Shown here: in pieces, positions 1,505-35,800 of the stretch
Layout: every line of letters starts with the position of its first letter
Numbering within the stretch: position 1 is the stretch's first letter
DNA from: Eukaryota sp. GEM-RC1
Taxonomy: Eukaryota
Direction of reading: 5' to 3'
Assembly: GCA_040285855.1 (NCBI GenBank)
Contig: JAUFOQ010000010.1
Location: 1,426,001 to 1,490,000 of the forward strand
Length of the DNA: 64,000 nucleotides
Program-made: the position numbers and the translations under genes
The notes under the pieces: generated by a model
What the model was told of the DNA's origin: nothing
The model's input: the letters and a program-made list of their open reading frames with translations, nothing else
Databases searched by the model: none

Positions 1505-3546
1505 TTAAACCATTTTATTAACCCAAATAATAGAATTAGCAAACAACTTGTGTCCTTCAGTTGAACTTGACCAATTCCATCCACCAGAATTAGCATCACT
1601 AGACCCACAAAAGAACCCAAACTCTACAAGTCTACCTCCACCAACTTCTTTCTTTGCAATTAAAGGAATTCCAGAATTAACAGTAGCTAATAGAGTTCCA
1701 TTAACAGACTTTTGAGTTTGAAAACCACAGTTAGTAGAAAAACTGTTTACATTAAGAAAAATAGGATCATTTGATAGAGTTTTTACCATGTCAAGTTGAG
1801 TTTGTCCGTTAAGATAGTTACCATCACCACCACCATTGAAACAAGAATTACTAAATCCTCCTTGGATATTACTTGGCCAACAATTAAACAAAACAAAACC
1901 CTTGCCTTGGTTTAAAAACTGGTCAAGAAATTGACCTGGACAAGGACAACAATGACTTTCAACAACTAAAACATCATAGTTTTCAAGTTCTTCAAAGCTT
2001 TGAACTTTACTGGTGAATGAATTAATTGAAAGATTAACAGTTTTCCAATTTCCAGCAAAACCTTTTTTAATTTTTTCAGTGAGATCCTGAATATGATAAG
2101 TCGAAAAAACTCCAACATTAATTCTTAAAGAAATCTCTCTACCCAAGAATTTTCTACCAATTACTTGAATTTCATCTCCAATAAGATTTTTAAGAATAAC
2201 TTTTTCCAACCAAATTTCTCTGTTTTGATTTGAAGCATTATCTAAATTGATTCTTGATAATAAATTACCAGGAATAACTGGAATTTCAGGAACACTTTCG
2301 AAAGAGAAATTATTGATAACATTTGACAACAATTCTACATTGGAATGTTCAATAAAAGTACCAACAAGAGCAAGAAATTCTTCTTCAGTTGGTGAATTAA
2401 ACTCTAGTTTTTCAAACATTAAATTGGTTAATTCAGAGTTAAGTTCTTTAATCCAATTAAATTGAGATATTGAAATAGGTTGAGAGTTATTGATGAAATT
2501 ATTGAATAAATTGAGTTTCAATTCATGAGGAATTTCAATTACCACGAGTTCTTGTAATTCTGAGAAATTGATAGAAAAATCATCAGAAATTTGAGCAATT
2601 GTTAATATTTCCTTGGATTTTGAAGACACATCAAACATATCAACATCAACGAAATCTTTCTTCACCAATCTGGACAACAATTTCAAATGAAAAGACTTTG
2701 CATTTTCTTCAATGAATTCAAAGCTTTCATTAAATGATTGTTGAAAGCTTTTAAAACCTCTACAACATTTTCAATAAACTCATTGCCTTTTTCTCTCAAC
2801 TCTTTGTCAAAAGCTAGAGCACAACTCACGGTATTTCCAGTACCAAGATCAACAATCTTTTGAGATGATTCTCTAACCAAGTTGTTGATCAAATCATAAA
2901 GAATTGTCTGAGTATTGACAAGAACTTCAGCAACAACCTTTTCTACTTCTTCTTTATTTCCAGAGACTTTCGAAGTTGCGTTGGACAAAGAGAGGTGGAG
3001 CTCTTTGACTTGGAGTTCAAAGTCCTCTTTGGCTTGTGAAAGAGGAATTAATTCCTCACAGTGTTTAGCGTGACCCATTAAAAGTCCACATGAGTCACAT
3101 ATGGATACCAAACACTTGGTACAGAAGTGTTCGAGAGGTTTAGAGGGGTGGCGAGGGCATTTGGAAGAAGAGATGTTGGGTTTTTGGTTGAGAGGAACAA
3201 CTGAGTGGGATCGGAATAGCTTAGGTTTATGAGCAGCGGTTGAACAATCACTACAAAGGACGGCGTCACAGTCACCACAGAAAAGAGTGGCGGGAGCTTC
3301 TTCACATTCAAAACAGATGGGCGCATCTTGCTTTGAGTTTTTAGCAATTTCAATAGCTTCTCGCAAAGCGATGTTTACACGGAGAGGAGATGAAGGTATT
3401 GGTTCCCGGCAAACGGGACAAGAAGCCACTTCTTTCTGTTTTAACCATTGCACAAGACATTTGTCACGGCAAAAGCTGTGACCACATAGAAGCGTTGTGG
3501 GATTCTCCATTAGTTCTTCACAAACAGAACATTCAAGATGAGACAT
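1505..3546 (-). CDS. TRIM-like E3 ligase: RING + two B-boxes + coiled coil + C-terminal alpha/beta domain (one frameshift at ~2690)
   Basis: C3HC4 RING (CSVC...CGHSFC...CPVC), B-box1 (CFECEEAPATLFCGDCDAVLCSDC...H), B-box2 (CPRH...FCTKC...CDSC...H..H), then a helical segment. ORFs 2683-3546 and 1505-2686 fuse if one T is added to the CTTTTCA run (QSLF-HLKLL). Confidence 0.85.
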
Positions 3547-7450: not shown

Positions 7451-8387
7451 TAGGATTGTAATTTTGAGTCAAGCTGACTCACTGAGATTTGAGTCAGTCA
7501 GCTCGAGTCAGGCTTATTTGACTTATGAGTCGAGTCAAGCCTGTATCTTTGTTTGTGAGTCAGCTCGAGTCAGGCTTATTTGACTTATGAGTCGAGTCAA
7601 GCCTGTATCTTTGTTTGTGAGTCAGCTCCACTCAAGTTTACTCTAATGAATATAATTTAGTACAATTTAAACGTACTCTATTACAATCACGTGGACATGG
7701 AATTAGTAGCTGTTCTCTGTATAAATTAATTTGCTTGTTAATGTGCGGGATGAGATGAGAGCTTACTTATCAACAGGCATAGTCGATGCTGCGGTGGATC
7801 CCCTAGATTGGTCGAAACGCTCACTAACCCAATCTGTAATAGATTCTATCACTACATCATGACCATTCGAAAGAAGTAGAGTTTCAAAAGCATCAGTGGG
7901 TGTGAAGTTTTCGACAGTTTCTTTAGTATAGATTCCAATCAGATTATCATAGCTTAGTTCACGACTACTTCAGCATTCAGCCAAGTTCAGCAGCAATTGA
8001 ACGTTTGTTCTCTGCTGCAAACCAAATTGTAACAAAGAAAAGGGCTAGACTATCTGCAACACTGCAATGAGTTTATTGTGTCTAGTAGTGTAGACACTGT
8101 CTACACTCGTGGTACGGAATAGGTGTATTAAATTCAGATCAGTAGAAAACAGTACATGTACTACAAATGCTACATGTCATGTAGCATTTGTGTTATGTTA
8201 TAGTAAAATAGAAAAGAGCAGTCAAAACGAGTCAGCTCGAGTCAGGCTTGGTTGACTCATGAGTCAAGTCAAGTCAAAGGTAGTCAAAATAAGTTAGCTC
8301 GAGTCAGGTTTTGTTGACTCATGAGTCAAGTCAAGCTTCAAATTGTACGCTTGACTCGACTTGACTCGGCTCATTTTAACAACCCTA
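7451..8387 (+). mobile_element. Non-autonomous hAT element
   Basis: Termini TAGGATTGT / ACAACCCTA, perfect 8-bp TSD CTCACATC (7443-7450, 8388-8395), subterminal GAGTCA repeats. Internal hAT dimerisation remnant DYFSIQPSSAAIERLFSAANQIVTKKRARLS. Confidence 0.92.
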
Positions 8388-11039: not shown

Positions 11040-13634
11040 CTAAATGTTGCTCTGTTTTAAAAGAACAGAATTTCCTCGTAAATCACTCTCAGAAACAGAT
11101 GAGTTATGTAACAAGGCTTCACCTAAAGCAATTGCTCCGTTGTCAGTAATAAAATTAGACTCAAGAATAATCTTGGTAACTGAAGAATTGACTTTAAACG
11201 CATCAGCCAAAGCTACTGCTCCTTCATTATCAATAGAATTGCACCGTAAAGCAATCGTAGTTAGGGGAGGAATTCTGCTTTAACGCCTCACTCAAAGCCA
11301 ATGTACTCTTAACTCCCATAGAATTGCTACCAAAATTAATTGATGAAAGGGCTGATGATCCTATATTCAAGGCTTGTATGATCTGTGACAAGGCTACGTC
11401 AGACAGTCCACACTCACTGAAGTCAACAGAAGTCAAGGAAGTATTGGTCTTGATCAAATCACATAAGGAAGTGATTGTATCATTAGAAAATCGAAATCGG
11501 GTAAGTGTTAGTGCTTTCATTATGAAACACTGGAAAAAACACTTCAATGCTGAAACAGTAGTAGTATTCATTTGAATTATTTTATAAGGACGAAACAAAA
11601 GCACTCCTTTGTCGACGTCAACTTGATGTGGATGAAGGTCAGTAAAGATCACTGATTTGCTCACAGAAATGATCTGTAATAAACGAATAATGTCATCATT
11701 ACTGTCAAGACTTGATCCTCGACATTCTACACGTTTTATAGGGATCTTTGATTGTAAGGCAGTTAAAAGTGATGATACATCATTGCTTTGAATCATGTCA
11801 ATATAAGAAATTGATCGAGTAATTAGGTCAATTGAATATGGGGGAATTCTAACAGATATTAAGGAACTGCTGGTTGATAAAATTTCAAACAATGTAATAA
11901 GGTCTTGTAAACAACTACAACTACAATCACGACATTCTACACGTTTAATAGGAGTGTTTGATTGAGAAGCTCTAACAAGTAAAGAAGAAACAGTGGAAAT
12001 ACAATTGCGATCTTCATGACAAATAACTCCAAGAGAAACATCAATCGAATGAGGAGAAAGATTAATGTTTGTAGTTAATTTACCAGCTGAAACTAGTTCA
12101 AAAATGGTGAACATAACATTAAGTGTAATACTAGTAGAACAATTACTTAAGTTGATCTTTTTTAAATTTGTGTTGAACTGTAGAGCACTGAGTAAGTTCG
12201 AGAATTGATGATATAGTGAACAGGACGAATATTGGTTGTAAGTAATGAAATCGTCATCAGAAGAGCTTTGGTAATTGCTACACCAATAATCATCAAAGGA
12301 TCTTCACGATCAAGGTGATCGTAACAATGACAGATAACAGGAGATGATTCATTGTCAGTCAAGTAATCATAACAATTACAGAGAACACTTTCAAAATCGT
12401 AATTAGGTATATACAGTCTGGTAGTTTCAATGTAACTGAAGTCAACAGAAGTCAAAGTATCATTGTTCTTAATTAACTCACACAAAAGAATGAATGCATC
12501 ATGGGCAAACCCACAGTCTTTAAGTGTAAGGTCTTTGATACATACAGAGTCCAAAAAGGACTGTAGAAACGTCACGTCTTTAGCTTCAATCTGACTGCAC
12601 GATTGTGGATCACCAGCGAATGACAGCACACCATTTTTAAAATCAAAGATATGAGGATCAAAATCAATAGAGCATGTTATATTGCTATTACATACAGTTT
12701 CACAGTCACGTACGAAAGAACGCAAACGTTTACGACTAGAGGGCAAAATGACTTTCCGGAGTGTTGAACTCTTTTCCAGAGCTTCAACTAATTTTTTAAA
12801 TTGTGATGGCCTAATCTCGAATCCATCCAATTTTAGAATCACTAATGATGTATTATTCCGCAAAATGTTCCCTAACGCCTCGATTTCTTCGTCGTTATAA
12901 GATTGATTACCAACGAGATGTAGTTCTGCTAAAAACCTGTTGGACTCAAGAGATTTAAAAATTGATGAAGACGATAATGGGGATAAACTTCTACTGAAAA
13001 CGTCACAATTGCGAAACGAATAATTGTACGGTAGAATTGAAATTTTAATAATATTGTTGTTTAATAGCGGAACCACTGTATTATGATCACGAAGACGCAC
13101 ATCTGATAAATCAACTTCTTGAATGGAGTTACAGTTAGCAAGTGCATTTATCATTTGAATCCACGATTGATCTTCGAAGGAGGAATCTGATCCAGCAATG
13201 GAAACCTTCCTTAAATGACATTTACTTGAGGAAAAAATTTCAGTGATTAGATTCACTTGTTTGTTTGAACATGCATAAACATTGAGATCGTGCAAAGTTG
13301 GGCTTTCAAGTACATATCTGGCAGTGACCTCGTTAAAGTTTGGATTGGTACCACTGTAACTGTAACTCATAGGTCTAATAGAGAGTGTTCGAAGATCGGG
13401 TAAGAAAAGAGGATCAGAAGGATTGAAGAAGTTATGAGAATATAGGCATTCACTGTCAAGACTAATTGCACGGATAATTGGGGTGAATGGAACAAGATCA
13501 GAACAATTGAACCGGTTAATGACATTTAACTCAATGGAATATAAACGAGTATTGAAAAAAGAAGCAATGTCGGAAAGTTTGAGAACGTTGTCTGGGTAAA
13601 CTTTGAATGTTTTGCTCTCAAAATAGGTTTGAAT
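11040..13634 (-). pseudogene. 3' part of an RI-like LRR gene interrupted by the retrotransposon
   Basis: LRR motifs (LTSVDFSECGLSD, INFGSNSMGVKSTLALSEALKQNSS, VTKIILESNFITDNGAIALGEAL). The frame stays open upstream of 13370 up to the TSD. Homopolymer frameshifts near 12297 and 11265; 3' end approximate. Confidence 0.85.
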
Positions 13635-13700
13635 TGTTGTCTGTAGACATGGAAGAAGGTAAAGTAAATTTATTTTAAGGGTACTGTACCAGTACTAACA
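13635..13700 (-). repeat. 3' LTR (66 bp)
   Basis: TGTTAGTACTGG...CAGACAACA on the minus strand; contains AATAAA; flanked by TSD GAAT at 13631-13634. Confidence 0.95.
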
Positions 13701-13719
13701 CTACTTTTTCCCCTTTCTC
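13701..13719 (-). other. Polypurine tract overlapping the end of the integrase ORF
   Basis: GAGAAAGGGGAAAAAGTAG immediately 5' of the 3' LTR; encodes RKGKK-stop. Confidence 0.85.
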
Positions 13720-16700
13720 GAGGACCTGGTCCTCTTGGCAGGTGGAGAGGCACGACTGGTACTACCCTGAACACTTCGTTTCTTTCTAGTAGACGGTTTA
13801 TATGAGGGATTAGATTTAATAAACTCAGAATAGGCTTTCGTATTCTTTATTTGATCTAAAGGTACCTCGGTGGTGTCGCCATCGAACCAGACGACTGAAC
13901 AAACAGGTCCGGAGGGTGAGTCGGATTGGGACAGTACCTTAATCACGATCATTTCCTCAGAGTCACAGGATGCTACTGCTTTGTGGAACTCATCAGACGA
14001 GGGTTTGTCAGTGAGGTATTTCTTACATTGGTGAACACTAGATTTGAACTGATGTCCAGTGATAATGTTCTGTAAGGTAAGAGAGCTGGCAGTGGGAGTG
14101 TCGATGACCAGGAATGGACCTTCGAGCTTGCCGTGAAGCTTCTTAGTTTTGGAGTTAGTCTTGAGGACTAAGTCTCCACTCGAGTACAGGGACGACGAGG
14201 TTGGTTCGGCAGTTATCACGGGTTGGGTGGAAGATTGGTTGATCTCTGCCTCTTCCCGGTTTTTCAAAATTCTTTGAATTTTTGATTGATAATCTGCCAG
14301 GAAGAAATCTTCTGATTGGCTTTCCCGCGAGAGACAAGCTAGGATCTTGCTAGGGTCGCTACCAGGGCTGGTGGCTGATCCGAACATGAGTTGGTATGGG
14401 GTGAAACCTGTCACTCTGCTCTTAGTTGTGTTAACTAACAGTTGTACAATTGGAATGTACTTGGACCAGTTGTCGTAATCATTAAAATCGATAAGCATCT
14501 TTCTTAATGACTGCAGGGTGTCTCTGTGGCGACGTTCCACTAATCCGTTGCTTTGCGAAAAACTGGGGATGGATTTCTCCGTATCAATATCAAAAGCCTG
14601 ACACACGCCATTAAAGACATGGTTGGCAAACTCCTTACCATTATCGCTATGAATCAGATGGGGTATACCAAAGATGGCACATACATTACACACTAGTGCA
14701 TGAGCGGTTTCTTGGGCATTGAGCTCCTTCAGGGGACATAAGACTGTATAACGGGTAAACGAGTCTATGAAAACGAGAAGGTGACAGTTCCCGGAGGTAT
14801 CTGTCGGCAAAGGTCCGATGGTGTCGGCATTCATTTTGGCAAATGGTTTGTCAGCCCAAAGGTTACCTGATGGTTTGATTTTGAGTTTTGCAAGGGGGAG
14901 CTGTCTTTTGACAAGCTGGACATTGCATGCAGTGTTTCTTCATATCTTTGGCCATCTTAGGCCAGAAATAGTCACTAGAGTTTAGCCGATCAATGCTGAC
15001 TCTTAGGCTGGGGTGGCCTGCGTGAGGAAAACCGTGGATGTGGTTCATCGTGGTGTTCCGAAGACTCATAGGTATGAGTATCTTACCATCGCTATTTAGG
15101 AATAGCTGGAGCTCGTCGTTGTATACAGCAGTGGGATGCTGGAACAGTACGTCGTTGTTGTTCTTGGCTTCTACTTGTGTGGAGCGTATCTTCGATAGCC
15201 AAGCGTCAAAAATTTTTGACTTGTTGATTAATGGTTCACTAATTGATGGTTCACTAATCATGTTGATTGACTCGGAGGTCAGTGATTGATATTCCATGTC
15301 GTCATCAGTACGACATAGTCCATCGATTCTAGAGAGCATCGGCTCGGGGCAAGATGTGACTAGGTTTATGTTTTCGGGTTGAGAGGTTTCAATGTTTCGA
15401 GATAACATGTCTGCCCAGTAGTTGTCTGCTCCAACAGTGTGGATCACTGAGAATTGGAATTCGCTTAGGATAGGTATCCAACGCTTGACTACTCTGTTTT
15501 TCTCAGGTGCTGAGATGAGGAAAGCTAGGTTTCTATGATCTGTGAAGATGGTTAAATCCCTACTTAGGAGAAATGATGACATGGGGGATTCCGTTAGGAT
15601 CAGGACAATAGCGTACAACTCTTTCTGAATTGTTGCCCAGTTTTGTTGAGATTCCGTTAGGAGTTTGCTGTAGAAAGCTAGTGGAATAACTTTCCTGTTG
15701 TTCAATGGGGTTCCATCTTGTGCGTTAGGAGGTATTTCCTGCCAAATGACACCACCTACGGCGATATCACTGGCGTCTGCACTAATCAGCACGCGTTGGT
15801 CCCTGTCTGGTAGACTGAGAGGCATGTGATTGATGATCTTATTTCTGATTGTCTCAAAATTAGATTGATGGAGAGGTGTCCATTTTACTGAACGAGCGTT
15901 GTTCTTGACTAAGTTTATGATTGGAGCCAGAAGGTCTGACGCACCTGGAATAAAAGTCTTTTATGTAGTTAATCGAACCCACGAAGCTACGAACTTCTTT
16001 GATTGTGGTTGGTATGGGCAACTCTAGGAGAGCTGTGATACGCGATGGGTCAATACTGCGTGTATTGTTAACGAACTTACTGCCCAAGATCTTTAGTGGG
16101 TGTTTCTTTGTCACAACGTGGCATTTTGGTAGGCCAAGGTTGACTCTACGTGTTAATGCTTTAGTCAGAACGAATCGGATTCGGCTCATGAATTCTTCGA
16201 ATGTACGGCCTACTATGATGATGTCATCGATGTAGATGAATATGCCCTCATGGTCGAATATTTCATACATCAAATTTTGAAATATCGCAGGGACGTTCTT
16301 GAGTCCAAAACAAGCTCTTTTAAATCGGATGGCTTTGCCAGGGATTACTAGAGTTGTCTTGTCTCTGTCCTTTTCTGCGAGGTTCAATTGCCAGAAGGCT
16401 TTCGGAAGATCTAAGGTCGCTATGAAGTTAGCTTCACTCAGAAATTCCAAGATGTCGATGATCTTTGGAAGATTCGGTTCGACAACTCGGGTCAATGCGT
16501 TGATTCCATCGGAACCACTGAAGTCTCCCGTAAGGCGGGGCTTACGTTGATCGGGATAGACCACCAGTACTACCGGTGAACTGAACTGTCCGTTGGGAGT
16601 TGTTAACTCAGCAAAGTCCTGTCGGACGAGTTCATCAAAAATCTCTTCGGCAATCCGTTGTTTCATTGGATTGAGCCGTCGAGGTTTCCGTCTCACAGTG

Positions 16701-19700
16701 GACTCTTCATTGTAGAAGTCGATCGCCATGGGAGGACAATCGATGCCGTCTTTGTGAGGAGCTGTTGAAAATATTGAGGAAAACTCCTGAAGCAGGCTCA
16801 ATAGGCTCTTAGTTCTGTTATCATCATCTAGTTTGATTGTGCAACCTGAATCGAATACATGTTTATTAAAGTCTACAATGTTATCAATAGAATGGCTACG
16901 GGGAGGTTGTATGATACGTGAGTCGAACTCAGACTCATCGTTCACGGTGGCCAGGATGGCCTTGTCAATCCGGATGACTAGTCCGTCTTCGGTCAGTAGT
17001 CCTAACTGTTTCATCAGATCGATTCCCAATAATAGTTTGTTGGATCCGGGTATTATTGGTAACGTCTTATCCACGTGTGTCAGGTACGCGATACTACTGG
17101 TATCGAAGGTCAAGATGCCCTGGGCGCTACCCAAGGACCGGGACTCGACATTGTTAGCGGAGGTGAAGCGAACATTTTTGTTGACAGGCGTCATGTTACC
17201 AGGTCTTGTGTGATGACGGACATGGTTGCTCCACTGTCCCAAAAACCTTGAACCGGAATTCCGTTAATCATCAGTTTGCAGCTGAGAAGAGGGAGTGGGT
17301 TCTGACTACTTATGCTGAATATGGAATTCAGGCTTTGTGAGTTCGTATTACCATTGGCGGAACTGATGTTGCTCAATGGGTTTAAGAATTGATTGGATTC
17401 AATCAAAATGGGATTTGATTGATTAGATGTGATGTTGTCAGATATATCTACAAGGCTGTTAATATGTACTGAATTTGCATTGAAATATTTAGATTTTTTA
17501 TTAGACGAGTGTTTCTTGCTATGACTACGAGATGGTTTTAAGGCGGTACTCTTTGCATTGCGTTGTTCTAAAGGAAGTTCACTACGTTTACATTCGGGAT
17601 CCGGGCATTGGAGGATGGAATGGCCCTTTTCGCCACAAAATCTACAGGCGTCAGGGTCTTTCTCTGCAGATCGAGGCTTCTTCGAGGGTGGCTTGGAGCT
17701 GGATGCCGATCTACGAGATCTACCGGGTTCACTAGACTGAACCGGGATGAGGGGACGAGAAGTCCATGATTTGGGGAGGTCTTCCCAAGTAGCTGTATCT
17801 CTAAGATGAGCTATCTCGGCAATTCGTTGTTCGTTCTGCACGTTGGCTGGAGCAGATTTCCATCTCTCGCACCAAGTGTCATAACGTTCTTTGACTTCGA
17901 AGATTAATCCTTGGATATCCGGAGAATCTTGGTAGAGAGGCCAACATTCAATCCAGATGGATACGATGCCTAAGTTTGACAGAATAGCTTTAACAATGGC
18001 TTTGTCTGGTAACGCAGTCATTGGCTTATTCTTCGGCTTTATGGCCTGGGTTCTTTGTAGAACGCGGTGCAACCGTGATATGAAATCACTCCATCGCTCT
18101 TCAGGGTCTGTGATGGACCACTTCATCTTGATCTTGTTCAGCTCATTCAAGGCAGTGGTCTCGTCTGGGAACTGAGTACGCTTGAGGAGAGCTAACCATA
18201 GGGTGAGAGGGTTCTTACCATCCCACTCCTTTGCATAGACAGCTGGGTCTGTAAGTCGAACTTCACAAAGCGTTGGATGTAAGAAGGATCAGCGTGTGCT
18301 GCAGCCGTTCGACAGAAGTCGAAAAAATGTCTTGGCCATCCGAATGGAGCCCCTACCGGTGTTTTGTGGTTAGGGTCCATCACGCTCCATTGAAGAAAGT
18401 CTTGAGCAAATTCAATGATGTCGTGTGGTTTCAAACTCGAAAGCATCTTTGGTTGAAGCTTGGAGTTCTTCATAGAGTCGAGGGGGACTTTCTGTTGGAA
18501 AGTGACAACACTATGGGACATTGGGGAACGTTGTTCCACAACCGAATTGGAAGCTGACGGAGCCAGGGGGGGGAAGGAGGTCAGTTGAAGGGGAGGTTGA
18601 TGTCGTGCTAAGATCACTCAAGGAGAGACCAAGCTGGTGGACATCAGATGGTGGATTTGATTGATCGGAAGGTGATTGATAAAATTCGGAAATTTCTTTC
18701 ACTTTAGACTTCGGATTTGCATTTGCTCTACGAGCGAGTTCTTCTTCATATTCCACTCGAGCTCGGTATTTCAATGCTGTGGGTTGGATAACCACTTCAT
18801 CAGTCGTGGTTATGGTGCTCTGGATAGCTTCGGGGAGCGGAGAGGAGTTGTGATCTGATGGGCGAATTCTTTTGTCCAAATTCGACTTTTCAAAAGTTCG
18901 ACCTGTCAATACTTCCTGGACCTTTTCCCAGCAATCTTTCACGGGAATCATGGTTTCCGGTATACTAGGGTCCATCAGGATAGTATGGGGTTTTCCTCGG
19001 TCGTCAAGGATGGTGTAAGTTCCTTCAAGGGGGAGAACTTCGTCGTTAAATTGTCTCCTGATCAGTCTTATGGCTGCCTGAGCTGGTCTAGGATAGCGGT
19101 TTCTTAGGTAGTCCGTTCTATCTTTGGCTCCATGAAGAAAATCATGTACCATTTGGCGATCTGATGGGAACATACGATGTTCTACTCGTTTTAGTTCCTC
19201 TTCTGTTAACCCTTGTTGAAAAGGTCCAGGAGGGGCCTGGAATAACTCTGAGGAACCCGTCTTAGTGGACCTGACAGGATAAAACCCTTGGACGGGAATA
19301 ATGGGATGGGGTTGGAACCCTCTCGTATCTGTGACAGGCCTTGACGGCGGAGGTTGAGACGGGTTAGATGGGCCTTTAGCGGGCGTCTGACCAGACTCTT
19401 CATCATCAGATTCGTCGTATTCGCATAGATCTTCTAAGTCAGGGTCCGCGGTGGGAGTGACGTGAGATACTATGGGTGTTTCACCAACATGAGGAACGGT
19501 GTCCTGGGCACGTGGAGTCGACGAGGCATCAACTATGGGAAGTGATGAGGGAACGGTACCCTTCTGAGATTTTTTTAATAGGGGCACTTTTGGAAGTGGC
19601 TTTAGGCAAAGGCTTGGATGGATGGAGACCTAGGTCTCGTTCCGAGGCAAACTTGAACCCCTCTAGTTGCGACGTGGGAGTTGCAAAAGAGGAGAATTGG

Positions 19701-20245
19701 AGAGTAGGAAAAGGCTTGTTCGGAGTTGGAGCTCCGCTGAACATAGCTCTAATCCTCTCGAAGGAAGGATTCGGTGGAGACGAAGTGTCTTTCGGAGGGA
19801 CCATATCTCTCGGAGGAGATAAATCCTGGTAATTAATCTGGACAGTGGAATCTTCCAGGGAGGAGGGGCTCTGAAGAGTGGTACCTTCTGGAGGGCTATC
19901 CTCTTGAATGGTGATTACTTCCTCTTGGGGTTGGGAAGGAAGGGTGGAACCTTCAACCACAGGAATCCTTTGAAGGGCGGGACCTTCTGAGGGAGTTTGC
20001 TGGGTTTGAGGAGTAGGGACGGAACCTGCAACCTCGGAAGTTGCTGGAAGGGCGGAACCTTCAACAGAAGAGGGACTTTGAAGGGCGGAACCTTCTAAAA
20101 GGGATGTAGTTGTTCCTTGGAGGGCGGGACCATCCGAGAAGAAACGACTCATTGTGGGGTCCTGGGACCTTGGTGAGTGCGGGGGCACTCTTTCACAAGG
20201 CGCAGCACCACATGGGACACAATAATTATTGTTGTCTGTAGACAT
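13701..20245 (-). CDS. Gag-Pol polyprotein, probably one ORF split by six single-base indels
   Basis: Zn knuckle CRFCGEKGHSILQC; protease WDSGA; RT LDLPKAFWQL, FGLKNVP, YIDDII; RNase H DASD, KELYAI, TDHRNL, ADMLSR; integrase HHCC (HGFPHAGH..CPAC), DTIGP, SDNGKEF, SNGLVER, GPF motif. Confidence 0.9.
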
Positions 20246-20295
20246 GGGAGAAGGTAAAGTAAATTTATTTTAAGGGTACTGTACCAGTACTAACA
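20230..20295 (-). repeat. 5' LTR (66 bp), containing the polyprotein ATG (20245)
   Basis: Same as the 3' LTR except 20248 G versus 13653 A; flanked by TSD GAAT at 20296-20299. Confidence 0.95.
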
Positions 20296-20593
20296 GAATT
20301 GAGACAAACGCGCATTCAAAGAAGAACTTGTTGACGTAACCGATTCTATGAATGAATTTGACCAATTCATCGAAGACAGTGGAAGGACGAATAGTATCTG
20401 ATCCCAATCAACCATGAGTAAGTAAGTGGACATTGAAAGACAATAATAGAGGTCCTTGTATGAAGATGGTAGAAGAAAGATGAGATGAATCTGATTGAAG
20501 AGAAGATATTGGTGTTGAAACAGCATTTAGATGAGTAGCATAAGTGATTTCAGAGTAGCGATTCTTCTTGAGTGGAGGTTCACTGTGAGACAT
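20296..20593 (-). pseudogene. 5' part of the interrupted LRR gene
   Basis: MSHSEPPLKK...LLTHG*LGSDTIRPSTVFDELVKFIHRIGYVNKFFFECAFVSI joins in frame to QTYFESK beyond 13634. It aligns with the paralog motif SFFKKVGYVSHHFFES. One in-frame TGA at 20408-20410. Confidence 0.85.
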
Positions 20594-23162
20594 TGTTTGG
20601 AGAATTTGTTTATGTGAAACTACAGTAGAACAAAAAGTGAGAAAATTCTACATTGTAGACAGATGAAAGGTATCAGGTCACACTACATTGTAGCTGGTCA
20701 GGTCAAAGTCTTGACCCCATCTTGACCTGACCTTTGATCCGATGGAAGGTATCTTGATCTGACCTGTTGCTTGATGTCTTGATCAACTACATTGAGTGTA
20801 TAATCTGTTGTGTTTCATAGCTGAATTAGTTGATATGATGTTGTTTCATATAATTGAACTCAAACAAGGTCCAACAATTACTTTATAAATCCACTTCAAA
20901 ACCAGAGTCTAACCACGCATTCAGACATACAAGAGCTTCGTTTTCGTTTTTGTATATTATTATTAATCGTCTACACTGACAGCTTATTACACAATAATAG
21001 TTTTGTACTACTTTATGTGTGATTTTGAATTAAAGAACATAATCAATGAACATCGAAGACTAGAAGGCAGATATCTTGACCTGACCCAAGTTCTGATGAT
21101 CTTATCTTAACTTTTTAACAGCCTTACAAAAGACATATAATCACGACCATAGGGTTACTGAAAATGAAATTTTGCATTCGATTATGGAAGAAGAATTGGG
21201 ATTGGTATAACCCTACAGCAATTGGTTTAATTAGTGTGGATTACACTAATTTTCATTACTTTTTCAGCTCGTAGAAATTATTATTGAAAAGTGAGAAAAT
21301 TGCTTGGTATCTATTATTGCCATTAATTAAAGGTTTTTAAAAATTTGTTACACATAACCATGGCTATGAAAACTCTATTGCTTTTCCAATATTGCAATCA
21401 TCAATATTTATAACCGTAATCTACATCATTTTCTGGTTCTTCCTTTCGGTTTGTTGGGACACTTCTTCTTCTTGTGACCTTCAATAATACATCCTCCACA
21501 TGGTGGATTGAACACCAAGATTGGGTGTAAGTGGTAGAACAATAGACTTTGTCAATAGTTTTAGATTATGTACATCTGGTAGTCCTTTCACTCTCCTTGT
21601 TTCACCAGTGCAATAAATCTAAACGCTCTTTGTTAGTTGTAACAAATCGGAAGGAATGACATAGTGTAAATTAAGGTATTTTGTTGATCACTTGTTTGAA
21701 CATGGAATGAACAAAACGATCTTTCAGAATCTTACACAACAAGAGATTCCAATTCTATGGATAGAAAGATGAAAACTAAACTCTTTTGCAGCAGAGCAAA
21801 TTTCCATTGGGACAATAATTCATCACAGTTAAGGAACTTTCTTAAAGCTGAAGAGGAACATCCTCAATGTCAGACATGAATAGTACAAAGAAAGGCAATT
21901 TTGCGGTACAAAGATAGCCACATCCCCATTTTCGGTAGTTTTGGTGAAATGAAATTTCAGTTTTCATCTACTAGTAGTGTTTCATAGCCTTTATTTTGAT
22001 ATGTATTGTGGTCCCCTTCATCTGTAAAGTTTGTTCTTAATTGATTTTTTTTTCATACATGGGCATGACATCATGACGCCATTGTGTTTTTTTTGTGAAG
22101 TTTTATGACACATCATCTAATGCTAATTAATGTGCGACTACACCTGAAACAAATGAATCTTTTGTCGCCCGTCATTTTCCAAACAAACTCTCATCCTCAA
22201 TACAGTTCCATTCTGACATTATCTGATATTCCTGGTTTATATGCAAAATCTTTAGTTTAAGTGACATATAAAATGTTGATGATGTAATTGTATCACAACA
22301 AACGAACCAAAAACTCGTGCTGGTGCAAAAGATTATTCCATGAAGTCCTTATCGGTATAAGAAGTGAAAAAATTGTGGAAATGAAGAAGAAAAAGAATAT
22401 TCATTCATGTAGACTATTGTTGAATAACTATCAATAAATATTGGAAATAGTGTTGTTTGTCATACTGACACGTCATGACATGGAGTGTCATGACAGAATT
22501 CAATTTGTTGTCAGGTATGATTTTTTTGATGAAATTCAGACACATATTGTGAAGAAATACTGAAATTGATTTAGAAATAATGTAACTTTTAGAAAGTTAA
22601 AAAGTAAAATTAGAAACCGAAATGAATGAATGTTTTTGACCATAGACATGGGCTTTGTCAGACAGGAAGAAAGTGAAGACGATTAATATTTTGAAGAATC
22701 CTAGTACTAGGTATTTAGGGTATTCAGGTAGGTATTGGTTATTGTTATTCATAAAATCAGGTATCCACAACTATGATTGCTATCAATCAACATAGCGAAA
22801 TCAGCATACTGGTATCAATACACTGACTCAAATAGCAATAATTTGAGTTATTAAACATAGTTATATATATAGACCTATAAGCCGGCTGGCCAGAGGTGGA
22901 TGGCTGGGATGAGATTAAAAAGTGGACCGACTGCCAACCCTACTTGTATTGGGGTCCTTTAAATCTCTCTTTGTATAATTAAAGAATATTCCATCTTTTT
23001 GTTCAAAGCTAAGAGTATAGCATAACTATATGTTGTAACTAAAGAAGAAATGACCTCATAACAATGGATAAATGTTAATTCAATGTTTCAATTTGGTATT
23101 GGTTAACCAGTGATATTGGGTTTTGTTTCAATGAGAGAGTATAACTTACTGATTAAGTTTAT

Positions 23163-24677
23163 CTAATAATAGTGTATTTGGACAATGGTATTGCATTTCA
23201 ACGTCTTTGCCAAAGCACTGCGACCGTTTGTCCCAATAAAGTCGATCTTTAGATCAATATTTGTAACTGTAGTGTTAACTTTTAACGCATCTGCCAATGC
23301 TCTAATACCTTCATTTCCAATCCAATTGCTGTCTAGATTAATACTTGTAATTGTGGTATTAACTTTTAACACATCTGCCAAAGCTCTGGCGCCTTCATCT
23401 CCAATAGAGTTGTGGCCCAGATTAACACTTAATAATGTAGTATTAACTTTTAACGCCTTTGACAATGCTCTAATACCATCATTTCCAATACAATTGTGAT
23501 TCAGATCAATACTTGTAACTGTAGTGTTAACTTTTAACGCATCTGCCAAAGCTCTAGCACCTGTATTTACAATAGAGTTGTGTCCCAGATTAACACTTGT
23601 TACTGTAGTATTAACTTTTAACGTCTTTGACAATGCTCTAATACCTTCATTTCCAATACAATTGCTGTCTAGATTAATACTTGTAATTGTGGTATTAACT
23701 TTCAATAGTTCTATAAATGTCATAGAGATAGAACTATGAACATACACGTGAAGCTTCTTAAGACGTGGAAACATCAACGAAGACTTGTTAAGAAACTCCA
23801 AGTCATTGCAATTTGATAATTTCAATTCCAAACCTGAAATTATATTAGAATAATTGAGAAATTCTTCAACTTTAAAGGTCGCGGAATCGTGCAAGAAAAC
23901 AGACTGTATCTTTGCTCCAAAGAAAGAAGCAAATGAACAGAGTTGAGGAAGGAGATTAAAACAAATATGAAACGTGTTTGTACTAAGAAACACATTGGTT
24001 GCTAGTAGAGCTGATTCAAAGAAATGATGGCTTACATAGCCAACTTTCTTGAAGAATGAATGAAGTTCGTTCTTTAAACAAAGGAATCCATGACGAGGTT
24101 CCTCACGATCCCATTCAAGGGAAGACTCACAAAGACTTCTCAACAAGTGAACACTGATGAGAATCAACAAAGACTGTTGGAAGTGTAGGGATCTTAAAGG
24201 AGACTGTAATGAATATGTCAAAGGGAGAAGTTCAAGTGGTTTAGGTTCAGCATTAGGTTTAGAAGAGAAGGTACTAGTATTCAATGGTTTAACAGAAGAC
24301 CGAGGAGTAGAGGCTACATAGGTACGGATAGGGCGGCCATGGATCTTAAACATCCAGTACTTATCTAAACATTGCTTGAGTCCTTGAACATCAAGAAATT
24401 CGACAAAGAACGTACCCGGCATATTACTAGGAGATCGAACTTCTTTAACGGGAAGAGAGGAGAAAGCTTGCCGAATGTCAGCTTCTGTTGCACTGTATGC
24501 AACGTTCACGATTTTGGCAGTGAAGGGGGCTTCAGAGGGAAGTTCATATTCTTGGTGGGATGGACGTAGAGTGAAAATGAGTGGTTCTTCACAAGCTATT
24601 GGATTACAAGAAGATCGAGTAGGTTCACTGTGGAAGGAGGATGTTTCATCAGTTCTTGTTTGAGTATTATGCTTCAT
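23163..24677 (-). CDS. RRM (eIF4B/eIF4H-like) fused to an RI/NLRC3-like LRR protein
   Basis: Intact ORF. RRM PSEAPFTAKIVNVAYSATEADIRQAF...FFVEFLD...IHGRPIRTYVA, family linker FFKKVGYVSHHFFE, then about six 28-aa repeats KVNTTVTSINLxxNxIGNEGxRALxxAL. Confidence 0.88.
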   Translation of the reverse strand: MKHNTQTRTDETSSFHSEPTRSSCNPIACEEPLIFTLRPSHQEYELPSEAPFTAKIVNVAYSATEADIRQAFSSLPVKEVRSPSNMPGTFFVEFLDVQGLKQCLDKYWMFKIHGRPIRTYVASTPRSSVKPLNTSTFSSKPNAEPKPLELLPLTYSLQSPLRSLHFQQSLLILISVHLLRSLCESSLEWDREEPRHGFLCLKNELHSFFKKVGYVSHHFFESALLATNVFLSTNTFHICFNLLPQLCSFASFFGAKIQSVFLHDSATFKVEEFLNYSNIISGLELKLSNCNDLEFLNKSSLMFPRLKKLHVYVHSSISMTFIELLKVNTTITSINLDSNCIGNEGIRALSKTLKVNTTVTSVNLGHNSIVNTGARALADALKVNTTVTSIDLNHNCIGNDGIRALSKALKVNTTLLSVNLGHNSIGDEGARALADVLKVNTTITSINLDSNWIGNEGIRALADALKVNTTVTNIDLKIDFIGTNGRSALAKTLKCNTIVQIHYY

Positions 24678-26480
24678 CAAAGCAACTCAAAACAGGACCA
24701 TTGACAAACCTCAAAGATGGAGATTCCCTTCTTCTGTTGCCTTCAACATCTTATGATGACTCCTCCCCTTTTCATCTATCCTTCACATAACGTCTTGTTA
24801 CACAGATAACGTCATAAGATAGGTCATCACGCTTAAGAACTCTTCAATACCATGATATTCTCTCGCTTAAGTGGTGATTTCGCCCCATCTTCTCTTCAAA
24901 CACGTCTGGAAACCCGTCTGTCCTAGTGTCCTCTGGAATCCATGTATACTTTTCTTTGTTGGGCATCATTTCTATGTAAGTATCTCACTCTCACGTTGTT
25001 TAATTCAATTACTATTACTTTTTTAGTTGTGAATCCACTGATTGTCTCTTTTTCTCTTTCTGTACTCTTACTCCACAGCAACTACTTAGACTTCGGTATC
25101 ACTTCAAATTTACAAATCTTAATTAGACTCTAGTATCTTCTCGGATGTTACTCTTTGAAGGGTTGATGACGTCATCATTAAACAAAGTGGAATGATTTAT
25201 ACTGAAAGTCTCACCATATGTTACAGCAGATGATCTTTTGATCTCTGGTTCTCTTTTTCAAACGTTTGAAATCTTTTGCTCTTCAGTAATCTACTTTAAA
25301 TGTTGGACAAGGTTATTATTTTTTCAGTTTTTTTTTAATAATTTGTAGTAGTTCTATACAGAGATTGAAGAAGCTTCGTCCACTCCGAATTTTCCTTATT
25401 TCAAAAAAAAAAGACCAACCGTCACGTCATTATCTAGTGTGTAGGTAGAATCAGTTGATTTCTTGTCACTTTACTTAGATTCATGGCCATGAAGAATAGT
25501 TAATTATTTTCAAAAAAAACCAAGTTCTTCAATTCAATTAAGGAAATCGAAACGACTATTTTCTGGGCCAGAAAGTAAAGTTTTAGATATTACCTTTCCG
25601 TATCTCATTCAATTGTTTATTGTGGCTGACATTGGGACACTATCCAAAGATAACAAAAGATAATTCAATCCATCTTACATCAAAATAACTTTATGTCTGG
25701 AACTCCTTTGGTAGAATAGCCATTCACAAACCCATACTTGAAAATATTGTTTGCTAACTCACCTTAAATCAAATCATTGATCCGATTTTTGAATCATCCT
25801 AAGATATCTCGGAATCCTCTCTCTCTTAAACGAATTTCTTAATCAACACGTACCGACAAAGACCGTAAGCAACCAATGAGTAATTGGTTTTTGTCAAACA
25901 AGATAGGTACTGGTTCTTTTCTAAAGGAAATGCGGAATAGAACACCTATTGTGCGCTTAGTATAATTATCCCCAGGGAAGACTGTTACTGTCCTTGAAGT
26001 AGGAGCTATGGAGAAGTCATTTTGACGACGTGTTGCAGATCTCACAGAGACGTCAGACGATGTGGAAGTGATAAAAGACATCAAGAGATGATGTATTAGT
26101 TTATGAATAAGGGCTTCGATATTCTGTGAAATATAAATTTCAGTGAAATCATCTGGAATTTTACACAATTGCCTTTTTGCCCCATATGATTCCATTCTAT
26201 TGGACCTTTTTTATACTTTAATTTTTAGTGATTCTATTTGGTAGAAGAAGGAACTTCTTCTACTCCGAATCTCCTTTTTCTTCTATCTTCTTGATTTCAA
26301 ACACTACTTTTGAATTTCTTTATTGTATCATGTTGGAGATTTCGAGTTGAATCTAGGTGGAGTACGTGATAAACACATACAAAGTTTAAAGACCAACCGA
26401 GAATACTTCCACCATTTCATACTTCTCTTCTTGGTATTATTCTTGAAAATATTTAAATAACAATGGATTATGATATGATA

Positions 26481-29848: not shown

Positions 29849-32800
29849 ATGTTCATTCCATTTCCTTTGTCTATGGATGAACTTCTACTCAAATCGTTTT
29901 CAAGGCAGTTTTACAGTGGTACTAGTATTATATCGACGAGCCCTTCCCCCTTTATAAGAATCCCATCACTCCTTCAATGTTCTTCTTCCAAACACATCCT
30001 TCTCCAACATTCCTTGTTGCTATCGATAAAGACTCATTACTTCAGACGTCTTTTACAACCTTCCTTTAAAGTCTCACTGTCTATTTCGAACTCTGATGAT
30101 TATGATGATGATTCAAATCTTCAAGAGGATCTCCTCTCATTCTTTAGAAAAGTTGGCTTTGTGAGCCATCGCTTCTTTGAAATAGCCACTGTCGCAGTCA
30201 CAGTCTTTTCGAGAATAACACATTTGATGTTGATTTCAACAATCTTCCACAACTCTCTTCAACCGCTTCCTTATTTGGAGCTAAGCTTCGATATGTTTCT
30301 TTGACAATGACAGGGTATCTTAAAGCAACAGACATTCTTGAGTTTAGTTCAGTTATTACTCATTTAAAAACTGCAGATTGCTACTTCGTACACCTACTGA
30401 ATCAGTCTGTTTTGTTGCCATGTCTGCGAGTTCTTGATATTTCCTTTTATGAATCTAGGTTCTCGAGAACCCCTCCCTCTAATGAATCATTTACTTCCTT
30501 TTGTGAATATCTAATGGTTAACACTACTGTTAAAGAATTAAATATTGATTTCGGCCTTCTCAGTAGACCGAAAGCTAGTGTATTTGCAGCAGTGTTTCAT
30601 TCAAATCGCTCACTACAGAAATTGTCTTTGTGTGCTGGAGAATATGAAAATCACGAATGTCTGTTGTTGATCACTACATCTGCAAAAAATGCTGGAATTG
30701 CAGAAATTGATCTGTCTAAACTTTTGGTAACATCTCCAAATTGTATTCTTCCACTTCTGCAGAGCTCTAGTCTCAGAAGTATTGCTCTAACACGCTACTG
30801 TGATTTTAGCCCTATAGTTTTTAATGCTTTTAAGTTCAATGCATCTCTTAGAGAGGTTTCGTTTTTTCATCTTCAACGTCTGATCCAGTACGTTATAGCG
30901 AAGATCTTGCTGATTTCTTCAAATCTAACACTGCGTTAAAGAAAATAACAATATGCGAACATGTGGAGTCTGGGTCTAATTTATTTTCACTGATTTTCAA
31001 CTCTCTTGATTCTGATAGTTCTCTATTAGAATTAATAATTAAGACGACACAATCATTCACAGATCAAGATGTTCAAGCATTATGCAACATGTTACAGATG
31101 AATACCAGACTACGTGTTTTGAGCTTTACTGGTAAACAAGTTTCTTTTTCGCAGTTTAACAGCTTGTTGAAAGCACTTGTATACAACAGAAATTTGAACA
31201 GAGTCATTTGTAATTTCCTAGACATTAGTTGTTTAATTTCGCTTTACAAAGCAGTGGTCGTGAACAACTATTGTTTTTCATTTGATGTTTCACCTCATTA
31301 TATTAACACCAATACTGTTGTGTTTACATGTGACGGTTTTGATGAATTTGAAGTTCTTATATCAGTAACATTGACTGATGTATTGTTTTTACAGTCTTTT
31401 TGCAGTGTCACAATATCAATGAGCTTACTCTTAAAGGATACCGTTTTGGAGCTAAAGAAATAGCTGCATTATGTGACTTATTGAGATCCAACAAGTGTTT
31501 GACTTCAGTTGACTTCAGTTATTGTCAGTTTTCTGATGAAGATTTGTTTGATTCATATGAACGATATAGATCGTCCTTCATTCATGACGACTCATTGAAT
31601 TTAGTTAATGCATTTCAGTTCAGTTGTTTAGAAAAGATCAATCTCAGTCATAGTTCAATTGGATTCAAAAGTCTTTTGACAATCATGGAACTGGTTACAG
31701 CTCATAAGTTATCACAAAATATTGATGTTTGTCCACATTCCATCGATTTTACTCTTGGTACTATTCACTATGACAATTTGATCGACAATGATGATTTAGT
31801 ATCACTCTTGAACGCTTTACAGTTAAGTGTTTTTGTAACACGTGTGGAATGTCATGGTTGGGAAAATCCAAGTTTAGAAGATCTTACTCTTTATTTGGAA
31901 ATTCGATCTATTAACAAATCAGTGATAGATCTTGATGTTTCTAATGATATAATTGACTTAGAGAAGGGTGTGTTTTGTCCCCGTCTTATTGAACATTTTT
32001 ATTTCTTCATCCTTTGTTGAATTATTGTCAGATCAAAATACTTAAGGTAAATTGTTGTTTTACAGATGAAACATTCTGTATTTTATGTGATTTAATTAGA
32101 GATAGTAAACTTCTGAATTCTGTTGACTTGTCCAGGTGTGTGCTATCTGATAACAACTTCTCAAAAGTAATATCATTACTACAATTCAACTCTTGTTTAA
32201 GTAAAATCGACCTTAGCGATAGTATGATTGGATTCAAAAGTATATTAAGCATTTACGTACTAATTTCTGGTGGTAGGTTGACTCCAAATATTCAAATTTC
32301 TCCTCATTGTGTTGACATTGAAAATGGTTTGTTTTGTTTTTCACCAAAACAATCAATTCACATATGCACTGAAGCAGTTTCATATCTCGAGGTTTTTCTC
32401 AATTCTTTCAGTATCAAAGATCTTACTCTTAGAAAATGTTGTTTCACTGACAAAGCGACCACTGCTTTGTGCAGTTTAATCAGTAACAACAGTACTTTAA
32501 CATCGATTGAATTCAGTGAATGGAATATGTCTGGGAAAAAATTCCAGAAAATAATCAATTGCTTACAATTCATTTCTAACTTAACAAGTATCAATCTCAG
32601 TAATAATGGCATTGTGCTCCAAAATCTTTTAAATATCCTGGAATTGGTTTCAACCCATATGTTACCGCCAAACATTGACGTTTCTCCGCATTCCATCGAC
32701 TTTTCCATTGGTTCTATTTACTATGATAATGAGATTTTTAGTGATGATTTATCCGCAGTTCTATTTGCTTTGAAATCAAATATTCCTATTAACCGTGTGG

Positions 32801-35800
32801 AATCTCATGGGTTGAGTAGTTTAAATCTACAAGGCCTTATTACATTGTTTGAAATTCTTTCAATTAACAAATCAGTAATCGATTTGTATAGTTCGTATAA
32901 TTCTTATCTCCTTGAAAAGGTAAGCTTACTACCTGGTTTCCCGATACATATCCTATAACATTAGATACATTTTCTCCACATTCTATTAACATTGTAGATG
33001 GTGTTCTTTGTTTTTCACCAAAAAAATCTGTCCGAGTAACTACTGAAGAAATGTCTTCATTACGATCACTTTTGATTTGTTCTAGTATCACAGAGCTTAC
33101 TCTGAGTCGGTGTCGTTTTTCTGATGAATTATTTAATATTTTGTGTGATTCAATCATGGTAAATAATTCATTGACTTTTATTGACTTCAGTTACATTGGA
33201 CTTGTCAACGTTTTTCATTTAGAACTTATAATTCTACACAACTATCCGATCAACAACTTTCGAAATTAATCAATGCACTTAGTTCCAAGTCTCATCTAAG
33301 AAGCGTTGATCTCAGTCATTCCCTAGGTTCAATTGGATTTAATATTGTTTTGACTTTCTTTGAACTTATTTCAGCTGCAAAATTAACACCAAATTTTAAA
33401 ATTGCTCCTCATTTCATCGATGTTTTTCTTGGTACTGTTCGTTATGAAAATTTTATAGGTAATAATGATTTAGTCTCACTTTTAACTGCGTTAAAGTCAG
33501 ATGTTCCTATCAAAAGTGTAAAATGTCATGGATTTAGAAGTTTAACTCTTAAAGGACTTGTTACTCTATTTGAAATTCGTTCTATCAACCAGTCGGTGAT
33601 AGATGTTGATGTGTTTCCTCATTCTATTGATCTTGAAAACGATGTATTTTCTTTTGTCCAGAAAGACCTACTGCGGTAGCTGTTGATGAAATATTATCTC
33701 TAAAGCGTCTATTGAAGAGTTTTAGTATTAAAAACCTTACTCTGAATCGGTGTTGTTTTTCTGATGAATCATTTTATGTTTTGTGTGATTTACTTAGTGT
33801 AAATAGTTCACTGACTTCTTTAGACTTCAGTGACTGTGGTTTAAGTGACCCTTATTTTTTGGATATTATTTCTGTAATTCAACCCCATTGTTGTCTAAAG
33901 AAACTCAATTTCAGTTGTAATTTTATAGGACTGGACGGTTTTGTGACTGTTTCTAAACTTGTCGTAGCAGGAAAGATTTCAAATAATCTTCAAATTTCCC
34001 CACATTTTTTAGATGTTAAAGATGGTGTGTTTTCATTTTCACCCGAAACTTTAACTGAAATATGTGGTCAAGACGTATCATCTTTGTGTTCCTTGTTTAA
34101 GCATCTAAGTGTCAAAAATCTTGTTCTTAAACGGTGTCTTTTTTCTGAAGAAGTCATCGTCGTTTTGTGTGATTTAATCAGGGAGTGTATTTCCTTGACT
34201 TCTATTGACTTCAGTTTCAGTGATTTTTGTGATGATCAGTTTTCGCAATTAGTCAGCTCACTTCAGTTTCAATCTGGTTTAACACAAGTTAATCTCAGTA
34301 GTTCCTCAATTAGATTCAATTCTCTTCTGACCGTCTTTGAATTGGTTTCAGCGAGAAAATTAACACCAAATGTTAGAGTTTTTCCACATTCTATTGATAT
34401 CTCCCTTGGTTCTGTGAGTTACAAACATGTGTTTGAACAGAGTGATTCTATTTCATTGTTAAATGCTTTAAAGTCAAATATCCTTATTAAACGTGTTGAA
34501 TGTCGTGGATTGAGAAGTTTACGGTTACGGAGATTTATTGATTTGTTTGAACTTTTTTCCATCAGTAAGTCAGTGTTAGATCTTGATATTTCTCCTCATT
34601 CGATTGACGTTGAAAGTGGTGTGTTCTGTTTTAATCCTGTTAATTCCGTACAATTAACAGGTGAAGAATTTCTTTCTGTCCAGTCTTTCTGGAAAAGTTA
34701 TACCATCAAACAGCTTACTCTCAAGAATTGCGATTTTACTAAGGACGCGTTCACTGGTTTGTGTGATTTACTCAACGTCACTACTTCTTTGACTCTTATA
34801 GACATCAGTAATTGTGATTTGACATGTGAACAAATCTCTCAAGTAATTTGTTTGATGCACTTGAGTTTTCGGTTGGAAGCAGTCAATTTAAGCAATAATT
34901 TCATTACACTTCAAAATCTGTTACACATTTTTGAACTGTTTACGTCTGCTGAAAAAATACCAAATTTTACTGTTTATCCTCATGATATTGATTTTTCTAC
35001 AGCTTCGATTCTTTATAGCTGTGAAGTTGACAATTATGATTTAATTTCACTTTTAAATGCAATGAAGTCTAATATCCCAATTAACCGTGTTTTCTGTCAT
35101 CCATTAAGCCGTCCAAGTCTCCAAGAACTTATTACTTTATTTGAAGTTCTTTCCGTTAACAAATTTGTGTTAGTTCTTCCTCATTCTTCTCGTCGTAGAC
35201 TTAGCGACTATGAGTTTTATGAGGATTTTATAGATATCGACTACGGGACAATTCATTGTGATAATATGATTGAAAACAGTGATTTAAGTGCACTTTTGAA
35301 AGCCTTAAAATCAAGTGTCCCTATTAAACATGTTGAATGTCGTGGATTGAAAAGACCAAGTCTGGAAGGACTTATTGCTTTGAATGAAATTCTTTCCATC
35401 AACAAATCAGTAATAGGTAAAAAAATTTCAAAAATCAGATATAACCTCGATGTTGAAAATGGTGTGTTCTGTTTCTCACCAAAATTCATAAATTATAGAA
35501 TCAACCATGGGATATTGCATGGAATAGGGCATGGATTTTGTAGGTCGATCACTAGAAGTGGCCTGACAGCGGACACTGTCTCGTTTTTCTCTCAGTTTTT
35601 GGAGTTGTATCGTATGAAAACATTTATTCTTAAGAAATGTCGTTTAAATTTTAAAACAATAACTGCTTTATGTGATTTGCTCAAGGAAAATCACTGGTTG
35701 ACCTCTATTGATTTCAGCAGTTGTAATCTATCAGGTTATGATGCAGTAAGATTAGCTACTGCTGTTCAGTCTAACCTTCATCTAAAACTTTCAATGATTA

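Follow-up and report, generated by a model that had tools for sequence, protein, structure and literature searches.

A frame-broken copy of a Ty3/gypsy-type retrotransposon family with 66-bp long terminal repeats and a palindrome at the primer-binding position in Eukaryota sp. GEM-RC1

We analyzed a stretch of 64,000 nucleotides from Eukaryota sp. GEM-RC1 (positions 1,426,001 to 1,490,000 of contig JAUFOQ010000010.1 in GenBank assembly GCA_040285855.1), which we will call the window. It contains a retrotransposon whose long terminal repeats (LTRs) are just 66 bp long. With moderate confidence, we believe that this is a frame-broken copy from a multi-copy family of the Ty3/gypsy type, that gag and pol in this family form a single frame that runs from an ATG within one LTR to a stop codon at the other, and that reverse transcription is likely primed without a tRNA, from a 14-nt palindrome at the inner edge of the 5' LTR. 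The coordinates of the features that we discuss are given in Table 1.

The initial annotation, which was made from the sequence alone, had proposed a pair of 66-bp repeats with one mismatch and a duplicated GAAT, and we found the same. The two LTRs are direct repeats that differ only at LTR position 48 (in the sense of the element), and their ends on the + strand are TG...CA. When we searched within the window with BLAST, the second copy was found with an E-value of 2.5e-31, and there was no further copy or fragment of the LTR of more than 12 nt. The window does not contain other copies of the element, solo LTRs, or other reverse transcriptase genes. Immediately outside both LTRs is a perfect 4-bp target-site duplication. 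(A repeat search reports 68 nt instead, since by chance the internal sequence starts with the same two bases as the duplication; a 66-bp LTR with a 4-bp duplication is the canonical reading.) The 6.5 kb between the repeats has a G+C content of 45-49%, as compared to 33-37% in the surrounding host region.

The element is on the minus strand, and so is the host open reading frame (ORF) that it interrupts. If the element is excised and one GAAT is removed, then the minus-strand frame continues past the junction for 36 codons without a stop, and the restored ORF has 526 amino acids from stop to stop. Two paralogs from the window (24071-23250, which is LRR_6 according to Pfam, and 30125-30208) align across the junction of this empty site. 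Because the host frame and the paralogs are both continuous over the junction, they support a true insertion, in which the short-LTR form entered a gene of an LRR family. This agrees with two earlier suggestions from the initial annotation, that the host ORF can be restored and that it was the short-LTR form itself that integrated; the equal LTRs and the perfect duplication also speak for the latter.

Within the element, the domains are in the order gag (with a CCHC knuckle), protease (PR), reverse transcriptase (RT), RNase H (RH), and integrase (IN). We found the CCHC, DSGA, YIDD, HHCC, and D-D-E motifs, and Pfam identified RVT_1 (in the ORF piece at 15860-17263), RT_RNaseH and Integrase_H2C2 (in 14863-15960), and rve (in 13701-14939). 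A complete PR-RT-RH-IN set had been reported for this element. All of the domains are indeed there, but they are spread, together with gag, over seven overlapping ORF pieces in three frames.

Taken together, these pieces leave no non-coding DNA between the LTRs: the long frame spans all of the internal sequence. The frame opens within the 5' LTR, and the gene models for other copies begin at its first ATG, at LTR positions 51-53. At the other end, a TAG stop codon abuts the 3' LTR. Because the 3 nt between the polypurine tract and the 3' LTR are this stop codon, the tract itself encodes the last residues of the polyprotein. (There are 8 runs of at least 14 purines on the element strand in the 64 kb, including the polypurine tract.) The AATAAA that the initial annotation had pointed to is present on the element strand, in the AT-rich center of the LTR (positions 27-32), and is a candidate poly(A) signal. 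Four features go beyond the initial annotation: the strand of the element, the start codon within the LTR, the stop codon at the edge of the 3' LTR, and the primer-site palindrome. We found no Rfam families at 13000-21000.

The N-terminal region of the polyprotein is encoded by degenerate repeats of 33-39 nt, each of which gives a version of a recurring short peptide. These repeats are visible in a repeat search, although they were not reported by Tandem Repeats Finder. This is also the least conserved region between copies (85-91% identity, versus 94-99% in pol).

We take the labels GEM-RC1, TZLM1-RC, and TZLM3-RCL to be Skoliomonas sp. GEMRC, S. litria, and Skoliomonas sp. RCL, respectively. 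Skoliomonas, which are in the BaSk clade, are described as free-living anaerobic metamonads (PMC11316075). The best protein matches for the element are "hypothetical proteins" from Eukaryota sp. GEM-RC1, and there are more distant families in TZLM1-RC and TZLM3-RCL. The window encodes one of the NCBI proteins from Eukaryota sp. GEM-RC1, P0159, without a single difference, and the gene model annotated in the window itself, P0149, bridges a frame break. Public annotation splits the window copy into several "hypothetical proteins." Overall, the family includes 26 gene models, which form three clusters at 90% identity and are found on at least 8 contigs.

At two other loci, the family is represented by intact single ORFs, P0153 (2153 amino acids) and P0156 (2151 amino acids). 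Both of these begin at the ATG within the LTR, read in one frame through all six of the positions where the window copy is broken, and end at the stop codon that adjoins the 3' LTR. Since these two ORFs are intact, autonomy of the family is plausible, and the family is probably autonomous. The best match for P0156 in PDB is the Ty3-G Gag-Pol (E = 1.5e-51), followed by the Ty3 RT (E = 2e-34), so the initial assignment to the Ty3/gypsy type is supported; by sequence, this assignment comes from the PDB match of P0156.

The relatives, which are families in the three Skoliomonas species, were compared at the peptide level, and at this level both the N- and the C-terminal peptides are consistent with the layout of our element. 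Their polyproteins end with a run of K, R, E, and G followed by 0-5 codons, which would fit a coding polypurine tract and a stop codon at or just inside the 3' LTR. Scans of metagenomes with the RT protein and with a 22-nt word from the LTR found no matches. In the literature that we searched, we found no description of LTR retrotransposons from skoliomonads or from fornicates; the sections of the Skoliomonas genome paper that are relevant here mention homologs of transposons only in passing (PMC11316075).

The initial annotation had called the element autonomous, which fails for the copy in the window. Relative to the intact relatives, this copy shifts frame six times, with five changes in the lengths of homopolymers and one 10-nt deletion within the protease. 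There are no in-frame stops inside the ORF pieces. As assembled, the window copy is not autonomous. Some of the frame-shifted readings recur elsewhere. The shifted reading at the T4 run (frame break 5) also terminates the gene models P0083, P0148, P0151, and P0160, which are on four other contigs, so either a subfamily inherited this defect or the assembly made the same error repeatedly. A second recurrent set (P0146, P0152, and P0155) has identical frame-shifted protein ends on different contigs. For both sets, either defective subfamilies were propagated or homopolymer errors recur in repeats. The genomes of the three Skoliomonas are described as Nanopore R9.4/R9.5 assemblies that were polished with Illumina reads (PMC11316075). 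Also, some of the LRR-type ORFs nearby look split over frames, so the frame breaks are not limited to the retrotransposon.

Even with a Nanopore-based assembly (PMC11316075), it is very improbable that the short LTRs are an artefact, whether because the repeats or their junctions were misassembled or because an unrelated pair of repeats lies around a remnant of pol. The LTRs are of equal length, with TG...CA ends and a perfect 4-bp duplication. The polypurine tract and the ATG are correctly placed and oriented relative to them. The host frame and both of the paralogs are continuous over the empty site. And the intact relatives start and stop exactly at the boundaries of the element.

At the position of the primer-binding site (PBS), the element has a perfect 14-nt palindrome, which combines the final 3 nt of the 5' LTR with the 11 internal nt that follow. 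We considered whether this might be an ordinary Ty3/gypsy element that has short LTRs and is primed by a tRNA or by a fragment of a tRNA. If so, the primer would be a host RNA, and the palindrome would be a by-product of coding or a site of dimerization. However, the first TGG is 20 nt beyond the 5' LTR, with none within 19 nt, and the first 11 internal nt are palindromic and nearly pure A/T, unlike a tRNA. (There are no tRNA genes in the window.) The primer might also come from an internal part of a tRNA or be some other host RNA; internal regions of tRNAs prime some elements, such as copia and Ty5. FunCo1 has an internal match to tRNA-Lys (PMC5445492). Also, palindromes are not rare in this DNA: there are 17 palindromes of at least 14 nt in the 64 kb, versus 6.2 in shuffled sequences (about 2.7 times as many). 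At this density, a palindrome at a given junction is roughly a 0.4% event, as assessed after the palindrome had been noticed.

Folding of the leader, taken from the LTR up to the second ATG, gives a z score of -3.16, and none of 200 shuffles folded as well. The minimum-energy structure pairs the palindrome's right half with bases that lie about 60 nt further downstream; the centroid structure does not. The window's other palindromes include an identical 16-nt pair (8252-8267 and 8314-8329), an identical 14-nt pair that holds a TGACGTCA core (25164-25177 and 49563-49576), and a perfect palindrome of 26 nt (40623-40648).

The peptides of the relatives give a trace of a similar palindrome. Many of the diverged skoliomonad polyproteins have a short motif at 5-13 residues after the Met: NNNYC, TVITV, TVRTV, TVITG, TVRTG, SIRIG, or TIIIG. 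All of these motifs are able to encode a 12-14-nt palindrome of one common form. Across 114 skoliomonad gene models, 19 have a 5-mer within the first 25 residues that could encode a 12-nt palindrome of the same form, versus 2.4 expected. Sixteen of these 19 are the motifs just listed, and the other three look like chance. The palindrome-capable motif occurs in two reading frames, and replacing Ile with Arg at its center corresponds to exchanging the central pair from AT to CG; both observations would favor selection on the nucleotides. That diverged families share this N-terminal motif, and in two frames, also speaks against a tRNA-primed element in which the palindrome is incidental. On the whole, we think that tRNA priming is unlikely.

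Several observations weigh against our interpretation. First, the LTR length of 66 bp is known from one copy only. Second, some of the five homopolymer breaks may be errors in the assembly, which is based on Nanopore R9.4 reads and polished with Illumina reads (PMC11316075), in which case the copy is perhaps less broken than it seems. Third, with 17 in all, palindromes of at least 14 nt are fairly common in the window. Fourth, the palindrome pattern in the peptides was defined from the same proteins that it was tested on. A generic test, for any 14-nt palindrome, found no enrichment (67 of 114 gene models, versus about 60 expected), and this result also counts in favor of tRNA priming; the generic test for 12- or 14-nt palindromes has no power, as 10% and 3.5% of 5-mers, respectively, qualify in the background. 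Fifth, P0153 has Thr instead of Asn inside the motif, which would break the central pair of the palindrome. Because the pattern is post hoc and the generic test was negative, we take the recurrence at the peptide level as a lead only.

How might such a compact element work? We infer promoter, poly(A), and priming roles for the LTR and the palindrome as follows. In the 5' LTR, the AT-rich center (positions 23-36, including the AATAAA) would act as a compact promoter or initiator, and in the 3' LTR, the same block would act as the poly(A) signal. If transcription starts just past the AT-rich block and the transcript is cleaved 10-30 nt further on, then U3 would be about 30 nt, R would be about 15-25 nt, and U5 would be about 10 nt. 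Translation of gag would start from the ATG at LTR position 51. The palindrome would stand in for the tRNA primer site: either two packaged RNAs would pair through it or the RNA would fold back on itself, followed by cleavage by RNase H. As for the broken copy in the window, it may have been made by a functional master element or may have decayed from one, and it could move only with proteins supplied in trans.

Alternatively, the LTR might hold only the integrase-binding ends, R, and the poly(A) signal, with transcription driven by read-through from the host or by an internal promoter. A length of 66 bp leaves scant room for a promoter, and the element is in the same orientation as the host ORF that it interrupts. 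Also, internal promoters have been documented for env in the Tor elements of Oikopleura (PMC4402516). However, a read-through RNA would lack the R-to-R structure that strand transfer needs, and the long frame begins within the LTR, just past the AT-rich block. Furthermore, a host gene family with four copies in the window has an AT-rich stretch immediately before the ATG, which suggests (anecdotally) that this host normally makes do with very short promoters and leaders. We consider transcription from outside the LTR to be improbable, somewhat more so than tRNA priming.

How does the element compare to known systems? It is a member of Ty3/gypsy (Metaviridae) by its sequence and by its CCHC gag, its PR-RT-RH-IN order, its TG...CA ends, its 4-bp duplication, and its polypurine tract beside the 3' LTR. 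It differs from known Ty3/gypsy elements in LTR length (66 bp, versus hundreds of bp in the textbook case), in its primer site (there is no sign of a tRNA-type site), and in its total coding compaction, with no non-coding internal DNA. The polyprotein is also very long, at about 2150 amino acids. Within Ty3/gypsy, the Tf1/sushi group is self-priming, and our element resembles this group in having a single gag-pol ORF and, apparently, no tRNA primer site. The primer site of Tf1 has to complement the start of the element's own RNA and is not palindromic (PMC5445492). The site in our element is palindromic and lacks such self-complementarity: the 66-nt LTR has no perfect complement of 6 nt or more in the 40 nt that follow it, so we rejected self-priming of the Tf1 type.

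Among published systems, the GalEa elements, which are Ty1/copia elements of fungi, have the closest analog of the primer site, called the Conserved Hairpin Site. GalEa elements are reported to have no PBS; instead, they have a palindrome that takes in the last base of the LTR, and the mechanism is described as unknown (Donnart et al. 2017, PMC5445492). As in GalEa, the palindrome in our element is at the position of the PBS and includes the last bases of the LTR, and a classical PBS seems to be missing. Unlike GalEa, our element has the domain order of gypsy, not of copia, and its palindrome has 14 nt instead of 10. The GalEa palindrome is accompanied by a second complementary box 12-41 bp downstream (PMC5445492), while the possible partner in our element is about 60 nt downstream and is paired in the minimum-energy fold only. 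The relevant sections of that paper do not report anything unusual about the length of the GalEa LTRs (PMC5445492).

We did not confirm the C-terminal integrase chromodomain that marks the chromoviruses. For the last 160 amino acids, an AF2 model (pLDDT 72) has two small beta domains. Foldseek found no match for this model with an E-value of 0.001 or better; the best match was to the Ty3 IN (3.5e-3), and matches to Tudor or chromo folds were weak. None of 8 skoliomonad proteins has a match to Pfam's Chromo at E-values up to 1. The nearest relative from outside of this group, P0121, does have a Chromo match.

There are two precedents, each for one feature of the element. Mag of Bombyx mori has a very short LTR (about 77 bp) and a tRNA primer. 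Ty1 of yeast has the start of gag inside the 5' LTR and the PBS inside gag, and it also uses a tRNA primer. In the literature that we searched, including the relevant sections of PMC3286476, PMC11117352, PMC3601003, and the work on the Oikopleura Tor elements (PMC4402516), we found no usable statement as to the shortest known LTR, and we found no LTR lengths in the corresponding parts of Parisot 2014 (PMC4202319).

Table 1. Positions of the element's features within the 64,000-nt window.
Feature	Positions	Strand
Interrupted host ORF, downstream part (LRR-type paralog family)	12162..13634	-
Target-site duplication, 3' LTR side (GAAT on + strand)	13631..13634	.
3' LTR, 66 bp	13635..13700	-
AATAAA in AT-rich center of 3' LTR (LTR positions 27-32), candidate poly(A) signal	13669..13674	-
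Polyprotein stop codon (TAG), abutting 3' LTR	13701..13703	-
Polypurine tract, 16-nt all-purine run, 3 nt from 3' LTR	13704..13719	-
ORF piece: integrase core (rve, D-D-E) and C-terminal part with two small beta domains	13701..14939	-
ORF piece: RNase H, then the zinc (HHCC) domain of integrase	14863..15960	-
ORF piece: remaining protease and reverse transcriptase (YIDD)	15860..17263	-
ORF piece: C-terminal part of gag, CCHC knuckle, start of protease (DSGA)	17191..18288	-
ORF piece: middle part of gag	18192..18617	-
ORF piece: N-terminal half of gag	18511..19629	-
ORF piece: N-terminal region, including the degenerate repeats of 33-39 nt (19871-20138); frame opens within 5' LTR	19529..20269	-
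Frame break 1: A7 run	19570..19576	-
Frame break 2: C8 run	18566..18573	-
Frame break 3: A3 run (the frame of intact relatives fits A4)	18230..18232	-
Frame break 4: 10-nt deletion just past the protease DSGA; four codons of other copies are gone	17197..17200	-
Frame break 5: T4 run (the frame of intact relatives fits T3)	15952..15955	-
Frame break 6: C5 run (the frame of intact relatives fits C4)	14894..14898	-
Perfect 14-nt palindrome at the primer-binding-site position: last 3 nt of 5' LTR and first 11 internal nt	20219..20232	-
5' LTR, 66 bp	20230..20295	-
First ATG of the long frame, LTR positions 51-53; gene models of other copies begin here	20243..20245	-
Target-site duplication, 5' LTR side	20296..20299	.
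Interrupted host ORF, upstream 36 codons	20300..20407	-

Several paralogous ORFs of the LRR type lie in 11200-13600, 23160-24680, and 30100-35960; the ORF at 23163-24677 combines LRR_6 with RRM, and a repeat with a period of 84 nt is found at 23188-23775. At 41300-63000 there are four tandem copies, with 70-95% identity, of a unit of about 6 kb. These units encode proteins with BTB and Sel1 repeats (for instance at 41311-43227 and 54112-55203), with a conserved AT-rich stretch right before the ATG. Beside the arrays of LRR and BTB-Sel1 genes is a gene for a RING and B-box protein (2683-3546, minus strand). The window has only 12 ORFs of at least 200 amino acids, most of which are fragments, and this is too few to derive a host promoter or poly(A) motif.

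If our interpretation of the element is correct, then it illustrates the degree to which LTR retrotransposons can shrink: all of the cis functions of the LTR would fit into 66 bp, and the whole of the internal sequence is coding. Common LTR detectors have a default minimum LTR length of 100 bp, so elements with 66-bp LTRs would be missed or mis-annotated. More tentatively, skoliomonads, and perhaps more generally metamonads and other protists with compact genomes, may harbor a clade of fully coding Ty3/gypsy elements in which an LTR of about 66 bp has room for an initiator-type promoter and the poly(A) signal as well as for the integrase sites and the start codon of gag. In such a clade, a covarying palindrome at the edge of U5 would replace the tRNA primer, which would be an undescribed mode of priming. 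We think that this broader proposal could be right, but we would not bet on it. If it is true that the palindrome replaces the tRNA primer, then this family, with its intact copies in a culturable free-living protist, would be a way to study a mode of priming that has so far been only suspected, in the GalEa elements of fungi (PMC5445492).

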